Assembly (NCBI GenBank): GCA_964016885.1
Contig: OZ024745.1
Span: 62,558,001 to 62,622,000, forward strand
Reading direction: 5' to 3'
DNA: 64,000 bases
Source: Eledone cirrhosa
Taxonomy: Eukaryota
Positions 8,005 to 64,000 of the stretch are shown in pieces. Each line of letters starts with the position of its first letter. Position 1 is the first letter of the stretch. A program made the position numbers and the translations under genes. The notes beneath the pieces were generated by a model. The model worked only from the letters and a program-made list of their open reading frames with translations, was not told the origin of the DNA and searched no databases.

Positions 8005-9600
8005 GTTTCTGAATTTGTTTAGCAAGAATCTTTATCTGAAAACGTGTGTTGAAACCGATATTGTTATACTTTGGGAGGGTCATGTTGACAATAAGAAACA
8101 CACTTTAATTTATTATAAATTAAATTTATAAATTTAAGAATTTATAAATTTCCGGTTGTTTGGTTGGTTCCACAACCAGACTATTGTTCATTGTCAAAGT
8201 TCTTTCGTCACACATTCTGTGACCTCTTCAGTGACTGAGGATTCTTTTCTTTGTTTTTGTGCCTCTCCTTTGTTCTGTCCTACGCCATCTTGCTTTTGTG
8301 TGTGTTGTGTGCTTAGTTTGCACATGTGTTACATCCGGGTGTCTGTGTGTGTTTATATTTGTTTATGTATTTGTTTATATACATGTTACTGGTTGGTTGT
8401 TTGTTCTATGTGTGTGTGTTTTCATGTTGTCCTTAATTGTAAGTTGTGATGTTGCTGTTCCATTCATGTTATCTGTGATTTGTCTAAACATTGCGTATTT
8501 TCTGTGTGTAGATTCTATTTTTATTTCTATGTTCTCTAATGTACCCTTATGTTCTATTTTAGCATGTTGGTGGAGTACAGATGATTCTTTACTATCTTGA
8601 AGATCTCGCCAGTGTTCATTTATCCGTTCCCCTATACTACGAGCTCTCTCACCTGTGTACAATATATTCTTATCTCTACAGTACAGCTTATGCTATATAC
8701 TACATTTCTAGTATTACATTTAATATGAGGGCTTAATTTACAGATTATACATTTCTTAATTATACAAGGAGGTCTTTGAAAAGGGTATGTATTGCTAATA
8801 CGTGTTTTTATGGAGGTACCTGGTCTTTCTACTATCTTAATATTGAGTTTATGTTTATTTAGGGCCCTTCTAAGTTTGTAAGCTAATTCACCTCTAGGAG
8901 TTGTATCGATGAACATTACACTCTGGTATTTATTGCTATCATACCATGAGTTTATTCTATTAACCTTTTTCCTAGTTCTTTCTATTCTATTCCAAAATTA
9001 GCTCCTATACAAGGGGCAGGTGCCATTTGTATCATTATATATCATTTTTTCCCATTTGGTTCTGGCTCCTCTATATACTCTGATTTTATCTCTCTGATTG
9101 TAACCATACAGTGGATGAAGTGTTGTATGTGTCTCTCTAGTTCTTTGGGGTTGCACATGCAGGACACGTTTCTCAACACCCGTACCAAATCCGCAATCAG
9201 TATGTTGATTTTGGTATGGTCCGAAACAGCTGAGTTTCGGTGGATCAGATATTTGGAAGTCATGGGTTTGGCATAATGGGAATGGAGGATATGTTTTTTG
9301 TTATTAATGGTATCTTACCTGAGCTTTGTGTCTAGTACAGGTAATCGATGGTTGGGGTGTTTCTTTGGGTAGTCTATAGTAACTCTAATACTCTGGTGGA
9401 TGGAGTTAGCTATTTGCTGGATGCTTTCCATGGTGTTTTTCTCTAATTCCTGACTGTTCTCTAGTGCGGGTATATTTACTACGATGTTTATATCATCAAC
9501 GTAGCGGGAGTTCATTATCATGGTTAGGAGTTTGCTGTCTTCTAATTGTTCTTTAAGTTTAAGTTTAAGTCTATTGTCCCACCATACCATGAATAGGTAC
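8002..9600 (-). mobile_element. PLE family A, 1.6 kb 3' fragment with tail; left arm of an inverted pair
   Basis: ORFs 9315-9629 (SRYVDDINIVV), 9042-9263, 8632-8916 (C-x4-C-x2-C, NVVYSISC) and 8375-8662 (YTGERARSIGERINEH). The 3' end abuts (TA)n. Confidence 0.93.
8193..8235 (-). ncRNA. Minimal type I hammerhead ribozyme, family A
   Basis: Minus strand: GTCA CTGAAGA-G GTCAC agaatgt GTGAC GAAA GAAC TT|TGAC. Stem I GTCA/TGAC, stem II 5 bp, one extra nt after A9. Confidence 0.75.
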
Positions 9601-12600
9601 ATCAACAATAATAACATCACAATCAACAATCAACAATCAACAATAATAACAATCATAACAATCATAACTGTTTCTACTTTAGGCACAAAGCCAACAATTA
9701 CCAAGTACATTACTGGTACTTTATTTCATCGACCCCGTAAGGATGAAAGGCAAAGTTAACCTCGGCGGGATTTGAACTCAGACTGTAAAGGGACGTAACT
9801 ATGCTAGAAAGCATGGCGTCCAACCCTCTACCGATAATCAACAATAATAACATACTCAAAAACAACCTCAACAAACACGGAGACAACAACAACACACATC
9901 AACTACAGCACACATCAACAACAACAACAACACATATTCTATGCCTCTCACCACATCCACAATCTTAACAAACACACAGACACAGAAAACGGGTAATGAC
10001 AGTAACACAGAAATATGGGAAGGTAATAGGATTGAAAGGAGAAGGGAGGCTATCGATACTGACATAGAAAATAACCAGGAAGAACACACAGACACACAAA
10101 ATAGAATAGATAATAACAATGAACCAGAGGAAAGAGGCAGGAGTAATAATGAGAGACATAGAAACAACCATGATGCTGTTGGTGGAAATAGAAATAGTAA
10201 CAACACAACTAACAATAACAATAGCAATAGTACACATAAAGCAGCAGCCTGGAACTCTACTTTTTATAATCCTCCCGATATGTCTTTCGACCTACGACGA
10301 GTCCACGCCACGCCTTCAGCTTTTAACAAAGCACGCAGTTGTCGTTGCAGGTCGATGAACAAACAGAAGCCCAATTTAGTATAGCTAGATCTAAACTTAG
10401 AAATATTATAGAACAGTATAGCAGGAATCAAAATAGAATGGAGGCCCAGAAACTGGGAGAAAAATGTGCAAATAGCTTGTGTAAGCTCATGCGGTGCTCG
10501 CGTAATGGAGAGATTGCATGCTTTCCAACATACAAGTCTGGAAGACTGTATGTTGACAGTCTGTCAAACTACATCCAGGCAATGAAACCCCACAACTAAC
10601 ACAAGAGAAGTAACACCACAAGAGCATGAGGATAGGGAAAAAACCCTCAATGCCTATATGATGATGTGGACAAATATAATGCAGCCCAACAAAAAGACTG
10701 CCAACAACTTCCAGACCTGGAACAATGACGTGCCAGCGTTGTATGGGCTTCGAAAAGACCATAGAACGAGCAGTGACCCTGTCACAGGACCACCAACACG
10801 GCCAGTCTGTGGAGCTAACATTGCTAGTAACTACAGACTTTCCTACTTCCTCTCCCTGATCATACGCCCCATCATTGAAATGTCCCCAGATATATGTGAC
10901 AGCACGGAGGACCTCCTCAGCAGAATCGGCGAGAGTAACCGATCTGGGGACCTAACAAACTACATAATAGGTACTATGGATGTTGTGTCCCTATATCCAT
11001 CTATTGACGTGGATTTTGCTGTGGAGAAATGCGTAGAAATGATCAGTGAGAGCACTGTTGCATTCCGTGTGATTGATGCTAGTGAGCTGGGACTGCTACT
11101 TAAACTTACCTATAGTAATGATTATCTAGATACATATGACCAGAGCAACCTGTGCCCTACAAGACCAGCAAGAGGCAGACCACCTACCATTACCTCAATG
11201 GCCAAGAAAACCCACACAGATAGATGGAACGGGTGGACCAGAGCCATACGGACACCCGAACACCACGATGAACTAAAGAAAATGATTGCACATGCGGTGG
11301 AGGACAGAATAAAATTAACCCTTAAGGAACATATGTTCAAATTTAATGGAAAAAACATATACCCAAGAGGAGGGAACAACCATTGGTGTTAGCATTGCAG
11401 GTGACATAGATAACCTATTCATGGTATGGTGGGACAATAGACTTAAATTTAAACTTAAAGAACAATTAGAAGACAGCAACCTCCTAACCCTGATAAGGTA
11501 CTCCCGCTACGTTGATGATATAAACATCGTAGTAAAAACCCCCCACTAGAGAACAGTCAGGAATTAGAGAAAAACACGATGGAAAACATCCAGGAAATAG
11601 CTAACTCCATCCACCAGAGTATTAGAGTTAGTATAGACTACCCAAGCAAACACCCCAACCATCGATTACCTGTACTAGACACAGAGCTCTGGTTAGATAC
11701 CATTAATAACAAAAAACAAATCCTCCATTCCCTTTATGCCAAACCCATGCCTTTCATATATGTTCAACCGAAACTCAGCTGTTTCGGACCATACCAAAGT
11801 GAACATACTGATTGCGGATATGGTACGGGTGATGAGAAACGTGTCCGCATGTGCAACCCCAAAGAACTAGAGAGACATATACAACACTTCATCAACTGTA
11901 TGCAGTTCTCTGGTTACAATCAGAGAGATAAAATCAGAGTATATAGAGGAGCCAGAACCAAATGGGAAAAAATGATATATAAGGATACAAATGGCACCTG
12001 CCCCTTGTATAGGAGCTAATTTTGGAATAGAATAGAAAGAACTAGGAATAAGGTTAATAGAATAAACTCATGGTATGATAGCAATAAATACCAGAGTGTA
12101 ATGTTCATCGATACAACCCCTAGAGTTGAATTAGCTTACAAATTTAGAATGGCCCTAGATAAACATAAACTCAATATTAAAATTGTAGAAAGACCAGGTA
12201 CCTCCATAAAAACACTTATTAGCAATACATACCCTTTTCAAAGACCTCCCTGTTTAGATAAGAAATGTATAATCTGTAAATTAAGCCCGCGTATTAACTG
12301 TAAAACTAGAAATGTAGTATATAGCATAAGATGTACTGAAGGACAATGTAGAGATAAGAATATAGTGTACATAGGTGAGACAGCTCGTAGTATAGGGGCA
12401 CGGATAAATGAATACTGGCGAGAGCTTCAAGATAGTAAAGAATAATCTGTACTCCACCAACCTGCTAAAATAGAACATAAGGGTACATTAGATAACATAG
12501 AAATAAAAATAGAATCTACACACAGAAAAGACGCAATGTTTAGACAAATCACAGAGGCAATAACCATAAATGAACTCCAACCAAAATTAAATAGAAAACA

Positions 12601-14329: not shown

Positions 14330-14707
14330 CGTTAGCAGAAAACCACCCAAAGGGTGATTTTTCTGCTAGTAATATTAAAAACTATCTTATAAAGCCATAT
14401 TTATTTTATTATATATATTTCAAGGGTACCAACATTTTGGCACGCTTTCATCAGATAAAATACAAAAGTTGTTTTACAGATAGTGACACATCCCAAAACA
14501 AGGACGTATGTTATCCTCATTAACATATTCATCCTAAGATTTGAATTTCTTTTTCATTATTCAACAGAACTTAAAACGATAAGTTCTTGTTTTTGGATAT
14601 GTCCCTATCTGTAAAATAACCTTTGTATTTTATCTGATGAAAGCTTGCCAAAATGTTGGTACCCTTGAAATATATATAATAAAATAAATATGGTTTTATA
14701 AAGATAG
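14330..14707. mobile_element. TA-associated inverted module, family H, with degenerate HHR
   Basis: Arms 14382-14505 and 14583-14707. CTGATGA...GCC AAAA TGTT at 14634-14658. Tail hairpin at 14333-14368. Confidence 0.7.
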
Positions 14708-31425: not shown

Positions 31426-32786
31426 CGTTTCTGAATTTGTTTACCAAGATTCTATATCTGAAAAAGTGTGTTGAAACCGATATTGTTATGCTTTGGGAGG
31501 GTCATGCTGCTAATAAGAAACACACGCACCAGTTGCTTTCACTCCAATTTATTATAAATTAAATTTATATATTTAAGAATTTGTAAATATCCGGTTGGTT
31601 GGTTCCATAACCGGACGGTTGTTCATATATTGTCAAAGTTCTTTCGTCACATATTCTGTGACCTCTTCATTGATTCTTTTCTTTGTTTTGTTCCTCTCCT
31701 TTGTTCTGTCCTACGCCATCTTGTTTTTGTGTGTGTTCTGTGCTTAGTTTGCGCATGTGTTACATCCGGGTGTCGGTGTGTTACTGGTTAGTTGTTTGTT
31801 CTATGTGTGTGTGTGTTTTCTTGTGGTCCTTAATTGTAAGTTGTGATGTTGCTATTCCATTCATGTTTTCTATTTAATTTTGGTTGGAGTTCATTTATGT
31901 TTATTGCCTCTGCGATTTGTCTAAACATTGCGTCTTTTCTGTGTGTAGATTCTATTTTTATTTCTATGTTCTCTAATTTGCCCTTATGTTCTATTTTAGC
32001 ATGTTGGTGGATTTAGCATGTTGATGATTCTTGAAATTCTCTCCAGTGTTCATTTAACCGTTCTCCTATACTACGAGATGTCTCACCTATGCACGCTATA
32101 TTCTTATCTTTACATTGTCCTTCAGTACATCTTATGCTATATACTACATTTCTAATTCTACAGTTACAGGGGGGCGTAGTATACAGATTATGCATTTCTT
32201 ATCTATACTGGGAGGTCTTTGAAAAGGGTATGTATTGCTAATAAGTGTTTTTATGGAGGTACCTGGTTTTTCTATCTTAATATTTAGTTTATGTTTATCT
32301 AGGACCCTTCTAAATGTATAAGCTAATTCACCTCTAGGGGCTGTATTGATGAACGTTACACTCTGGTATTTATTGCTACCATACCATGAGTTTATTCTAT
32401 TAACCTTATTCCTAGTTCTTTCTATTCTATTCCAAAATTTGCTCCTATACAATGGGCAGGTCCCATTTGTATCATTATTTACCATTGTTTCCCATTTGCT
32501 TCTGGCTCCACTATACACTCTGATTTTATCTCTCTGATTGTAATCAGAGAACTACATACGGTGGATGAAGTGTTGTATGTGTGTCTCTAGTTCTTTGGGG
32601 TTGCACATGCGGGACACGTTTCTCATCACCCGTACCAAATCCGCAATCAGTATGTTGATTTGGTGTCATCCGAAACAGCTGAGTTTCGGTGGATCAGATA
32701 TTTGGAAGTCATGGGTTTGGGAAAATGGGAATGGAGGATTTGTTTTTTGTTATTAATGGTTTCTAACCAGAGCTCTGTGTCTAGTA
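31423..32786 (-). mobile_element. PLE family A, 1.36 kb 3' fragment with tail
   Basis: ORFs 32144-32518 and 32013-32195 (NVVYSIRCTEGQC..CIGETSRSIGERLNEH). HHR remnant at about 31633-31673. The 3' end is at (TA)n. Confidence 0.92.
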
Positions 32787-40164: not shown

Positions 40165-43121
40165 ATAGACAGAGAGAGGGAGAGAATATTTAAGTATCTA
40201 GAGAAAAAAGAAGAGATAGGCGATACATGTAGTATTTGCCTGTAGCATATGCAAAAGGTGCTCAATACTTGTGCGTGCAGTGTTAAATATTAGAAGTGTT
40301 AATATCTAGTGGGCGAGAAAATCACAAGAGCGGATACACGTGGAGAAGTATATAAAGGAGAACAAACCGTTAAGACATGTTTATTTAAAATAGCACCTAC
40401 GTACGTTTCGCCCGAATAGGCTTCTCAAGGGCATAAAGAACAAAAAAAGCGTTCCTTACATGACCCAGAATGGGTTTTAGAGATAAGTTCACATCACAGT
40501 TTATTCTTCGTAAAAAACATGTATTGATTTTGCAGTAGGTCAAGGGAGATAACTCTAGCCGGTGTTAGAGCAGTGTTCTCCAGGCTACGTTTTACCCGTT
40601 ATTACTTTATGGTTACTGCTTTACCATTGTCGATTCACGCAGGGTAAGGGAAGCAAAGTTAGTTTCCAGATGTTTGTTTGCTGCGCCTGCCCGCCGGGGT
40701 CGATTCATGCCTGGTCTGAGATGCATGGTTGGTTTCCGGATGTTTTTTGCAGCGCCTGCCCGCCGAGGTCTTAAGGTTTTGGTGCAGGGTTTACGGTTTT
40801 CACGCCTCATTCCTATTCCAGCTGGAGTAACAGATTTTTAAGCGGTGCGTACAGCTTATCGTCGTTTCTTCTCGTTTCTGCTCGTGGGGTCCATGAGGCA
40901 AAGCTCGCACTTCCTCTTGAAATTGAACGATGCTGCTCTGCCGACAATTTCCCAGTGCGTGGAGAAGCTAATGGTTGAGTCTTTTAATGCGAGCGAAGTG
41001 GAGCGTCTTAGTTTCTTGTTTGCGAAAGAATGGAGATGTGTTCGAAATTTATTTTTGAGCGGGCCAGAGGTAGCCCCTATATAATGTTTAACGCTATTAT
41101 GGCTAGTTACGGTGCAACTATAAATAACCTTATCAGTCAGGCAGTTTCCTCTAAGAGGGCAGCGTCCCCTGTCACGGCAGTTGCAATTTCGGTCGCAGTC
41201 CCTTCTAGTTCCCAAGGTAAGGCTATTATTATTGATATCTATGTTGTTACCTACGCCCCTACACTTGTCATTGGTACCATTATAACCCACTGTGTGCAGA
41301 GTAGTACCATTATCATTCCGAACGCCACAACGCCTTCTGTTGTCGTTGGGTGACCCTTAAGGGTCACCTGCATATTCCCCAGTCATGTCGCGGTTATGTT
41401 GGTTGCGTCTGTAGTGGCTGTTGCCAGAACTATTGGATGCTACCTAGGGAGTCGTTAAGGCGGATATAGTTGTTGTCAGGTGTAGGTGTATCGGTGTCAA
41501 GGTGCTGTGTCTTGGTGATCTTACTGTGATTAGTAGTTCCTATGATGTCTGCTAGGTTAGGAGTAGTAGAGAAGGATATTTTTATATTGTTCCTATTAAG
41601 GATTTTCCTATATTTATGGTTGGGTGGGAAGTTCTTCTCTAAGGCTTCGAAGAATATCCGAGGTATGTCGGAGGCCACTCTCCGAGAGTATGGAGGATGG
41701 AACCATAGGACGTTACGGTTGCGATTCCGTGTCTTTGTATGTTTGCTAAGGGTTGTGCTATCAGGGTGGCCGGTCTTATGCATGTTATCGTGCTATAGCC
41801 CGTTACGTGTCCCTTTCGCTTTATGCTCGGGTGCACTCGGCTTCCTTCTGCTACGTTTATGTATAGGAAGACGCTGGTTGGAAGGCGTTTGTAGTAGGCC
41901 ATCGATTTTGTTGATCTTATAGTAGGGGAATAATTCGAGTAGGCTACAGTGGTCACTGTCACCGGGGTCGTGATCCTTATTGTGTGGTAAGCTACCAATA
42001 CTATCGCTTGTGTAATTGACATTGTGGCCGTGTTCCCTAGTGCAATTCTATATACTATTATTTCTGACTCTTTCAAAGCCGTCGCATGTTTAGTTATAGG
42101 TATGGTTTACTATAACATTAGTCTTATGAGAAGGGTGGTTTCTGGAGCTAGCATTAGGGATATAGGAGATTCTTCGGTTAAAACCGGCCCAAAGCTAGGC
42201 CTTATTGTAGTAATCTGCCGCTTGGTTGAAGATATTCTCATTGTCGGAGAGCCTCGAGATCCTATGTGAGATGCTATAAACTATCGAGTTGAGAGTCTGC
42301 TTAGGGTGGTTAGAGGTATAGTTAATATAAAATAGGCTCTCTCCGGGCTTATGGTATGGCTTGTATAGGCCCGTACTCAACTCCAGTGTCACGTAAAGGA
42401 AGTTGACAACCTGGTGGTTGAGGTCCATAGTTACAGATAGGCCGTATGACTTGAAGAATCTGTGTATGTGCATGTTAAGGTTCTCTATTCTGCGGGGGCT
42501 ATGCTTCCTAACGGTAAACAGGGCATTGTCTCTATATACACCTCCTTTTAGGGCCGGTATCTCGTCCCTATGTCTATGGAGGAAGGTATATTCCGACCAG
42601 GACGGTTGCTTGCGCCGAGTCACTGGACCCCATCATGATATCGAAGTTATCAGGACGGTTGGTTCGGGTCCAGTGGGAGCCTTCGAACTGGATAATGGTT
42701 CTACGTGCTTCTAGAACTATATCTATCTGGTTTTTAGTGAGGCTAGTGAGGATTTAGCTAAGATGAGTGCCTTATTTAAGAGTATAGGGGAGATAGAGGC
42801 GTAGTAACTATCTATGTCAAACTGGATGAACTTCAGGGTCGCTTTATCAGGTAACTCGGTGAAACAATCAATGACCTGGTCAGTGTTGCTCCAGAGACAG
42901 ACCTTAGCTTTTCTATTAAACTCCAGTAGTACTCTATCGAGGATCACTTTACTAATCTGTGATGTGAACTTATCTCTAAAACCCATTCTGGGCCATGTAA
43001 AGAACGCTTTATAGTTTTTTATGCCCTTGAGAAGCCCATTCGGGCAAAACGTACGTAGAGGCTATTTTAAATAAACATGTTTTAACGGTTTGTTCCCCTT
43101 TATATACTTCTCCACGTGTAT
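40165..43121 (-). mobile_element. PLE family E (YRDD/WFNPPYS type, probably Hydra group), 5'-truncated, with a short inverted 3' end at 43013-43121
   Basis: FIQFDIDSYYASIS, GVYRDNAL, VNFLYVTLEL, YINYTSNHP, WFHPPYS, CNCRDRGRCPL (CxCx5C), VIYSCTV..HYIGAT and KCELCL. Frameshifted. The clade name is from recollection of the CxCx5C linker and needs a phylogeny. Confidence 0.9.
40393..40434 (-). ncRNA. Minimal type I hammerhead ribozyme, U3-A8 variant, family E
   Basis: Minus strand: GCCC TTGAGAA GCC tattcg GGC GAA ACGTACGT A|GGTGC. The second copy at 43023-43062 (+) has GAAA mutated to AAAA. Confidence 0.75.
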
Positions 43122-62700: not shown

Positions 62701-63506
62701 TTTGCAGATTTTGGTGTCCGATGTTATTTTAAGACGTGTTTCCATTTAATAGATCGATGGCAACATATCAGTAGAAAAACGTGACCGATAAAGACAATAA
62801 AGTAAAATATGGGAAGAAATGTTTCAGTAAGATGTGATCAATATTGTTAAAAAGCTATTGCTAGTAGTTTGATATTTAGACGACAGACAGCTGGGTCACA
62901 ATATCTGAAATGTAAACGGATGAACAGAGGGATCATACTAACGGACGGAGATTGCATTTAATAACCAGGTGGTACGAGGAAGCAGGTGTCCTTTATTATT
63001 AATACCGGTACACTTAATGCACACACACACACATATATATATAATAATAAAGTATATATCCCTACACGCAAAAAGCGTATAGGGACACATGTATTGTCCA
63101 ACCATATGCCAATGTCGTTCAATAGCAGGTTAATAAATTAACGAGCCAGAACATATATGATCAGTTTCGAATCGGTTTCGAGTCTATTTATAGTAGTAGT
63201 AGACTGACCTCCCTGCCTCTGCTTCTATCTTTACACACGGCACTGGACAGAATTGCTTCCACATCATTCAATCTCATCTAGGAAACAATTTTGAATAGCG
63301 ACAGTTCGTAATTTGAACTCGGGAATTTTATATTCTCCGAGTGAAAAGAACCTTGTGAAGAGAGTTTATCTTTTCAATGGAAGCCCGCAAGGACTGTACA
63401 TTTATTTTTGAGACTCGAAACCGATTCGGTAAAGGTAACCATAGTAAGTACAGTGAATTTTTTGAAATTTATTTTGAAACTCTTTCTTATGTGTTAAACC
63501 TTGATT

Positions 63507-63563
<57 letters not shown>

Positions 63564-63566
<3 letters not shown>

Positions 63567-64000
63567 TAGGATTTCGCTTCAAGCATAGCTTTATACAATA
63601 TGTATAAGTATTTCGTATCTCCAAGGAAATACGGTTTTAGGAAGCCGTAGCTATGCAAACACCGGTGGGCTAACGCCCTCTGGTGATGTCCAGCAGAAGC
63701 AAGTGGGACAACCGTCTATGCATTTCAGGCTTAACTGGCCTTCGTCAGGACGGTCTCTCCCACCGCTTGCGACTGCTGGACTAGAAGACAGCCGAGAATA
63801 TATACATTTCTCGTCTGTGTAAATGAGGTGATTAATCTCATTTGCATATGAAGCTGCATAAGTTGACTTAACTTATAATAAAAAAGAAATAGGATTTCGC
63901 TTCAAGCATAGCTTTATACAATATGTATACATATTTCGTATCTCCAAGGAAATACGCTTTTAGGAAGCCGTAGCTATGCAAACACCGGTGGGCTAACGCC
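63564..64000 (-). mobile_element. Tandem 323-nt HHR-containing monomer (candidate non-LTR retrozyme); runs off the window end
   Basis: 63564-63677 repeats at 63887-64000 with 3 mismatches in 114 nt. It is non-coding, highly self-complementary and abuts (TA)n. Confidence 0.8.
63711..63754 (-). ncRNA. Intact minimal type I hammerhead ribozyme
   Basis: Minus strand: ACCGTC CTGACGA AGGC cagttaa GCCT GAA ATGCAT A|GACGGT. Perfect 6-bp stem I, 4-bp stem II and palindromic stem III. Confidence 0.92.

Follow-up and report, generated by a model that had tools for sequence, protein, structure and literature searches.

A 323-Nucleotide Repeat with a Predicted Hammerhead Ribozyme in the Genome of Eledone cirrhosa: A Probable Retrozyme with Penelope-Like Insertion Ends

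Introduction

Non-LTR retrozymes of animals, described from coral, mussel, and axolotl, are hammerhead ribozyme repeats of 170–400 nt that yield RNA circles, according to the available portions of PMC7229834. In the available portions of that work and of a preprint (bioRxiv 10.64898/2026.07.22.740005), the enzymes of Penelope-like elements (PLEs) are proposed, not shown, to move animal retrozymes by way of such circles. As far as it is accessible, the preprint also places Xenopus retrozymes close to PLE terminal repeats (pLTRs) and reports that eight of nine predicted retrozyme dimers did not cut. An inverted 5′ copy and a tail of 30–40 nt are typical of PLE insertions in the accessible parts of PMC8557442 and PMC3846280. 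In vitro, the tail is the distance between two internal start sites of the reverse transcriptase, both strands of the target being cut and extended; for Poseidon of Anolis, uncut RNA was the main substrate, and ribozyme cutting was dispensable for insertion (PMC11167929).

We analyzed a 64,000-nt stretch of DNA from E. cirrhosa (contig OZ024745.1, positions 62,558,001 to 62,622,000 of the forward strand; hereafter the window), the right end of which carries a 323-nt repeat unit, together with related copies from the genome. Our reading is that the unit is probably a retrozyme and that a PLE enzyme probably copies its RNA into DNA at breaks in TA repeats. The class of animal retrozymes and the proposed PLE link are already in print, in the portions of PMC7229834 and bioRxiv 10.64898/2026.07.22.740005 available; the sequence family is new, and likely belongs within the known animal non-LTR retrozymes.

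The Unit at the Right End of the Window

The features of the locus are as follows.

63506..63563, no strand assigned: at outer end T1, the (TA)n microsatellite used as target and a few additional A/T bases
63564..63886, minus strand: one full 323-nt unit, the RNA sense being the minus strand
63564..63597, minus strand: "tail" of 34 nt between start sites T1 (unit position 1) and T2 (position 35), where arms start
63688..63781, minus strand: rod extending stem I in the circular fold (63688–63696 pairs with 63773–63781), kept in the oldest subfamily
63710..63755, minus strand: type I hammerhead motif, with cleavage predicted between 63717 and 63716 (between AUA and GAC)
63887..64000, minus strand: partial second unit, continuing to window-equivalent 64014

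Bases 63564–63886 recur in 63887–64000 with 111 of 114 positions equal, which gives a period of 323 nt that begins at the border of a (TA)n array (63506–63568). The unit has a GC content of about 43%, its T2 site sits in the loop of an AU hairpin, and no ATG-initiated open reading frame (ORF) longer than 57 amino acids overlaps the element. In these respects a preliminary description of the window, which had reported an ORF-less 323-nt period next to (TA)n, was accurate. It had also taken the locus for a tandem array of monomers, a view that did not survive extension of the sequence beyond 64000. The first arm stops there after 451 nt, or 1.4 units; nine filler bases follow, then an inverted arm of 418 nt (64024–64440, positions 1961–2377 of the extended locus L001), and then (TA)n again, with no ORF behind the element. 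The inverted arm carries a ribozyme with GAAC instead of GAAA and has an atypical outer end, at unit position 208. With only one ribozyme in each arm, the locus is unable to release RNA of unit length; head-to-tail copies with two ribozymes are found at the level of the family and are absent here.

All core and stem elements of a type I hammerhead are present on the minus strand at 63755–63710, with the cleavage site where it had previously been predicted. Stem I has 6 bp plus a G-U pair, the core reads CUGACGA and GAAA, stem II has 4 bp with a 7-nt loop, and stem III has 2 bp with a palindromic GC loop, a combination that matches the canonical metazoan form as given in the accessible part of PMC4209133. 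The region folds with a z score of -4.77, matched by 0 of 200 shuffles, and the core is intact in 47 of 80 segments that cover it and were picked by their tail. In the window, Rfam gave no match at gathering threshold and, at E ≤ 5, four weak low-complexity matches, none to a hammerhead family; a search for a hammerhead motif on the opposite strand of the unit found none. Self-cutting and circular RNA are predictions for this family. The three sequencing holders of the sequence are contigs of one sample that look like genomic DNA and confirm a high-copy repeat only; the listed holders include no RNA runs, so they have no bearing on expression either way.

Folded as a circle, the unit reaches a predicted minimum free energy (MFE) of -107.3 kcal/mol, compared with -71.3 ± 5.6 in 100 shuffles (z -6.5), and the self-paired circle is stable in prediction throughout, with z from -6.5 to -8.5. 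The rod and hairpins listed in the preliminary description recur in the circular MFE structure, among them the TGTAAATGAG/CTCATTTGCA helix, which is complete on the plus strand and contains a C-A mismatch on the ribozyme strand. The near-total base pairing claimed there does not hold, since 63% of bases are paired and shuffles average 59% with a maximum of 66%; it is the energy, not the pairing, that is unusual.

Copies in the Genome and Their Ends

Exact matches to a 37-mer of the ribozyme number 376 in the genome and those to a 25-mer of the tail region 679, and a relaxed pattern of the hammerhead core matches 1,410 times; reversed patterns, used as controls, match nowhere. At least 40 loci are 94–97% identical over nearly the full length, copies are spread over many chromosomes, and on average they lie 3.3–3.6% from the family majority. 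These figures agree with the earlier characterization of the repeat as an ORF-less, non-autonomous hammerhead retroelement with many recent copies, and the copy number rules out a one-off duplication.

We analyzed 177 non-redundant loci with 315 arms, chosen by best matches or exact patterns and mostly from contig C1, after setting aside 14 duplicates, 29 PLE loci, and 60 loci of older subfamilies. Arms start at two preferred places: 141 of the 315 at T1 (positions 1–9) and 125 at T2 (positions 24–47, mode 35), the other 49, some of which are alignment breaks, starting elsewhere. Among single positions, 133 arms start at position 1, 64 at position 35, 18 at position 29, and nine at position 38. 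An inverted pair of arms is present in 116 of the loci and absent from 61; 75 of the 116 pairs combine T1 with T2, compared with two that combine T1 with T1 and three T2 with T2.

In the first 117 loci, (TA)3 stands within 22 nt of 85 of 95 T1 ends and beside 63 of 90 T2 ends, against a background of 12.5% at locus edges. The inner joints between arms, in the same loci, mostly show an overlap of 0–4 nt (microhomology) or a short filler; joints at paired hairpin partners were looked for and not seen. The unit junction is crossed by 130 of the 315 arms, and two ribozyme positions are spanned by 16. Most copies comprise 0.3–2 units in two opposed arms, not a long array; target-site duplications are unreadable inside (TA)n. 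A tail of about 35 nt on one end, an inverted arm, and a (TA)n target together make good evidence that the insertion footprint is of the PLE type.

A few loci are of another kind. L156 (G000:C2:83920630-83923935) holds about ten units in tandem, 4–19% apart, two of which have a common deletion and a poly-C patch, and its outer end is at T2; it has the look of an old insertion that grew by higher-order duplication, and the longest arrays (L135 and L156) look like local duplications. Seven identical ribozyme matches at G000:C1:143348607-143796123, spaced by about 58–60 kb or by 105 kb, are a large tandem segmental repeat that carries one older copy.

Local duplications (L135, L155, and L156) are what would be expected of a satellite-like DNA repeat spread by recombination at the DNA level, in which the ribozyme motif would be incidental. 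The dispersal of copies over many chromosomes speaks against such an origin, and it is contradicted by the two fixed outer ends at (TA)n, next to variable inner ends, and by the covarying RNA helices described below; we regard it as the least credible of the explanations considered here.

Comparison with Described Elements

As far as the available descriptions reach, the family resembles animal non-LTR retrozymes in the size of its unit (170–400 nt), a GC content below 50%, a single canonical type I hammerhead in each unit, the lack of an ORF, copy numbers in the thousands, coexisting PLEs, and a stable predicted circle that leaves the ribozyme free to fold. The closest of these in size and in the weakness of stem III are axolotl Rtz331 and the newt repeats. 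Unlike the retrozymes of those descriptions, it occurs mostly as 0.3–2 units in opposed arms rather than in long arrays; its PLE tail and inversion footprint and its series of subfamilies are not among the retrozyme features given in the accessible portions of PMC7229834 and 10.64898/2026.07.22.740005.

With the insertions of EN+ PLEs, as partially accessible sources describe them, the family shares the partial tandem with an inverted 5′ arm, the 30–40-nt tail on one end, a target that is AT-rich or (TA)n, inner joints with microhomology, and a hammerhead upstream of the start sites. It differs from EN+ PLEs in lacking an ORF for reverse transcriptase (RT) or GIY-YIG endonuclease, in its period of 323 nt, and in its ribozyme, which is canonical and not of the minimal PLE type (PMC4209133, accessible part). 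Non-autonomous Chlamys elements such as MRC1, which the available part of PMC8557442 presents as ORF-less dependants of PLEs with multicopy head-to-tail insertions, are similar in this respect. Hammerhead viroids and plant LTR retrozymes (discussed in the accessible part of PMC7229834) are likewise small, structured, non-coding, hammerhead-bearing, and possibly circular. The present ribozyme differs from theirs in being of type I, of one polarity, and unblocked by pairing in the predicted circle; the family, moreover, shows genomic insertions with PLE ends, and no LTR, PBS, or PPT is apparent in its architecture. We found no cephalopod or octopus retrozyme in the literature, the supplement of PMC7229834 (invertebrate retrozymes), Repbase, and Dfam being outside the scope of that search.

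Subfamilies and Selection on the Fold

The relaxed pattern revealed older ORF-less subfamilies of the unit. Subfamily majorities are about 321–324, 338, and 334 nt long, and copies lie 3.3%, 7.5–7.7%, and 11.6% from their own majority (49, 14, 15, and 48 segments). The oldest and youngest subfamilies are 21% apart, and the oldest is tandem in the same way as the young copies. The test set consisted of 104 pairs, all predicted using only the majority sequence of the young subfamily, and was examined with three alignments and 5000 shuffles. Two-sided (compensatory) changes keep 11, 9, and 11 of the 104 pairs in the oldest subfamily, where the null expectation is 2.5–2.6, and these counts were reached by 0, 1, and 0 of the 5000 shuffles; 12–17 pairs are broken, with about 29 expected. 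Compensatory pairs in such excess indicate that the fold has been under selection. The covarying pairs include three of the four in stem II and two in stem I, around an invariant core, and the ribozyme therefore matters to the spread of the family.

Copies that have landed decay neutrally. Their C>T (321) and G>A (353) changes show no strand bias, and their ribozyme region is unprotected, being 4.1% diverged compared with 3.4% elsewhere. Covariation between subfamilies, combined with this neutral decay, indicates that the fold is selected in the propagating RNA and not in the DNA copies. The counts of A>G (134) and U>C (113) changes gave no signature of A-to-I editing (p 0.66).

Another reading is that of a viroid-like circle that would also replicate from RNA to RNA, genomic copies being by-products. 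The opposite strand folds as well as the ribozyme strand or better (z -7.0 to -9.9, versus -6.9 to -8.5), and some loci have private variant sets in both arms, as such replication might produce. By symmetry, however, any sequence rich in hairpins will fold on either strand; the opposite strand is without a hammerhead motif, and the asymmetry between A-C and G-U that would mark selection on it is not significant (10 versus 5, p 0.30). We therefore consider RNA-to-RNA replication of this kind highly improbable.

The RNA Template

For the analysis of end points, we used 96 arms that had been selected by matching the tail and not the ribozyme. Of these, 79 pass the cleavage site, none ends at 150–156, 29 cross the junction, and six pass a second site. 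In the full set, three of 315 arms stop 2 nt or less from the cleavage site, and one gap occurs in the 12 alignment columns around it. Since most tail-picked arms continue beyond the cleavage site, linear monomers that had been cut, whether or not copying jumped from end to end, are unlikely to have been the templates; the template must have exceeded one unit in length and been intact where the ribozyme would cut.

Within a locus, sharing of common variants is seen in 21 of 27 comparisons with the next unit and, between arms, in 49 of 66 and in 10 of 13 comparisons (74–78%); between loci it is 10%. Sharing so far above that between loci implies that each insertion drew on one template type for both arms and for successive units.

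The behavior of rare variants (<3%) is more complex. A pure monomer circle predicts no effect of unit index on their sharing. They are shared at the same unit index across the two arms in 28 of 476 cases, between next units in 5 of 269, between different indices in 2 of 121, and between loci in 0.5%; with L135, L155, and L156 left out the test gives p 0.003, several sites per locus not being independent. Restricting the comparison to matched positions leaves the difference in place (15 of 259, versus 4 of 208 and 3 of 110). Where a position is covered three times, all copies have a minor allele (<8%) in four of 24 cases, and ten of the other 20 come from three composite loci. In both arms of L235, the second unit, and no other, carries two rare alleles. 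Rare variants thus lean mildly against a pure monomer circle, and either a heterogeneous multimer or later conversion from arm to arm would yield the same-index excess.

These observations bear on a variant of our reading in which element and PLE enzyme are the same but a genomic tandem locus supplies the template, as a linear transcript of several units that has not been cut. The ribozyme would then trim transcripts or be a legacy of PLEs, and there would be no circle intermediate. Besides the same-index excess and the pattern of L235, the existence of arrays (L156, about ten units) and the preference of Anolis Poseidon for uncut RNA (PMC11167929) favor a linear template. Against it, arms that cover two ribozyme positions are few (16 of 315), and with truncation the element would become shorter in every generation; L156 is old (5–10% from the majority), whereas many copies are near 1–3%; and the ribozyme stems are under strong selection. 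The private variant sets of L158 and L160, which recur at no other sampled locus, also speak against it, though conversion would give the same. We hold a linear template to be unlikely, yet give it a real minority share of what we count as the best explanation.

The chance that an arm ends, per 50 nt, is 0.04–0.2 in the first 270 nt and at least 0.3 afterwards; this rise is as expected from strand displacement by the enzyme after one round, but also from short sources. In all, a circular template seems plausible for the family on these sequence patterns: we would assign about half of the weight to a monomer circle, about a third to an uncut linear multimer, and the small remainder to other routes.

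Penelope-Like Elements in the Genome

Some PLE families of the genome that target (TA)n are very large and retain near-intact frames. Family A, with about 25,000 first-look genome candidates, is represented in the window by broken copies (8138–12445, 17–1165, and 32144–32551) and elsewhere by L101–L104, with an open frame of 995 amino acids in L101. It has a CX4CxxC linker ahead of GIY-YIG and a hammerhead-like motif in its pLTR, and appears Neptune/Nematis-like by the description in the accessible part of PMC8557442. Family B (window 40856–43061; L105–L109 and L281–L310) has frames of 968–979 amino acids (L105/L106) with an asparagine/glycine-rich insert before the endonuclease, and no CUGANGA core was seen in its pLTR. 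Family C is broken (L179/L180). Pfam gave only a sub-threshold GIY-YIG match on four PLE fragments of the window.

The preliminary description had attributed mobility of the element to the (TA)n-targeting PLE machinery of the window. The footprint in (TA)n is indeed of PLE type, but the two PLE families of the window have no sequence in common with the unit. A blastn comparison of the unit with 11 long-frame loci of families A, B, and C gave no match, and no autonomous partner was found among these three families. The two ends are about 140 nt apart in family B and about 57 nt in family A, neither of which equals 35; the spacing in family B far exceeds the 30–40-nt tail of PLEs in the accessible descriptions. 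When the unit was aligned locally to family B, 5, 4, and 0 of 200 shuffles scored at least as high; the null of this test is weak, since the AT-rich family C likewise gave 0 of 200. At the end of family B a stem closes on GATACG with AAATA after it, and the stretch preceding T2 is similar, though the score is weak. PLE fragments in the flanks of copies are apart from the unit or broken. One of them, just upstream of the unit at L143, was considered as the body of an element with the unit as pLTR and rejected, the unit being inserted into a broken ORF.

That the units might be the pLTRs of an autonomous PLE, the ORF-bearing copies of which were not sampled, is suggested by ends, tail, and inversion, all PLE features, and by the closeness of Xenopus retrozymes to PLE pLTRs in the available part of bioRxiv 10.64898/2026.07.22.740005. 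The sample, moreover, covers 177 young and about 50 older loci and three PLE families of probably many. Yet 130 of the 315 arms pass from unit to unit, where an RT and GIY-YIG ORF would lie, without an insert; the oldest subfamily is equally tandem; and both the blastn result and the canonical form of the ribozyme (see PMC4209133, accessible part) point the other way. We judge a pLTR origin improbable.

The resemblance to the end of family B enters into a bolder reading, to which we give a similarly low rank. The family might be an endogenous viroid-like RNA circle of an animal, a lineage of 323–338 nt in at least three waves within one genome and with no sequence kin among the resident PLEs, copied from RNA to RNA between rare integrations. 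It would recruit a PLE enzyme by mimicry of a start signal (a stem ending in GAUACG and then AAAUA, such as family B has at its end), and both arms would come from one circle.

A Proposed Cycle

Returning to a retrozyme moved by a PLE enzyme, we propose the following cycle. Transcription would begin from a rare locus with two tandem ribozymes. The hammerheads would cut, probably as a dimer, because stem III has only 2 bp and its loop is palindromic, and a host ligase would close the 323-nt circle, as suggested by other animal retrozymes. The RT-endonuclease of a PLE, by analogy with the Anolis Poseidon work, would nick both strands of (TA)n, and copying of the RNA would start internally, from T1 for one strand and from T2 for the other, where the ends of copies are observed. 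Each cDNA would pass the cleavage site, often going beyond the unit junction, and the two would be joined head to head through the 0–4 nt of microhomology or short filler seen at the joints. Landed copies would then decay in the neutral fashion recorded above, while a master lineage keeps the fold, as the compensatory changes indicate.

For the proposal that PLE enzymes move animal retrozymes, the family offers genomic support of the PLE part, in the form of two fixed start sites, inverted arms, and TA targets. It would also make a compact substrate for tests of PLE priming in vitro.

Neighboring Repeats

Directly left of the (TA)n at the window locus, 63150–63505 is a high-copy repeat with an 18-nt perfect inverted repeat (63168–63185/63411–63428), probably another PLE-type insertion in the same microsatellite. 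To the right of the element (L001 2373–3337), a 217-nt repeat occurs in two copies, spaced by 601 nt, between TA runs; after these comes the end of another common TA-flanked repeat family, which also adjoins L018, L020, L026, L030, and L067. Elsewhere in the window, 14387–14701 is a two-armed element with inverted arms of 123 nt that are 93% complementary; each arm has a type I hammerhead motif (14626–14686 on the plus strand and 14462–14402 on the minus strand), and the element belongs to a different family from the 323-nt unit.
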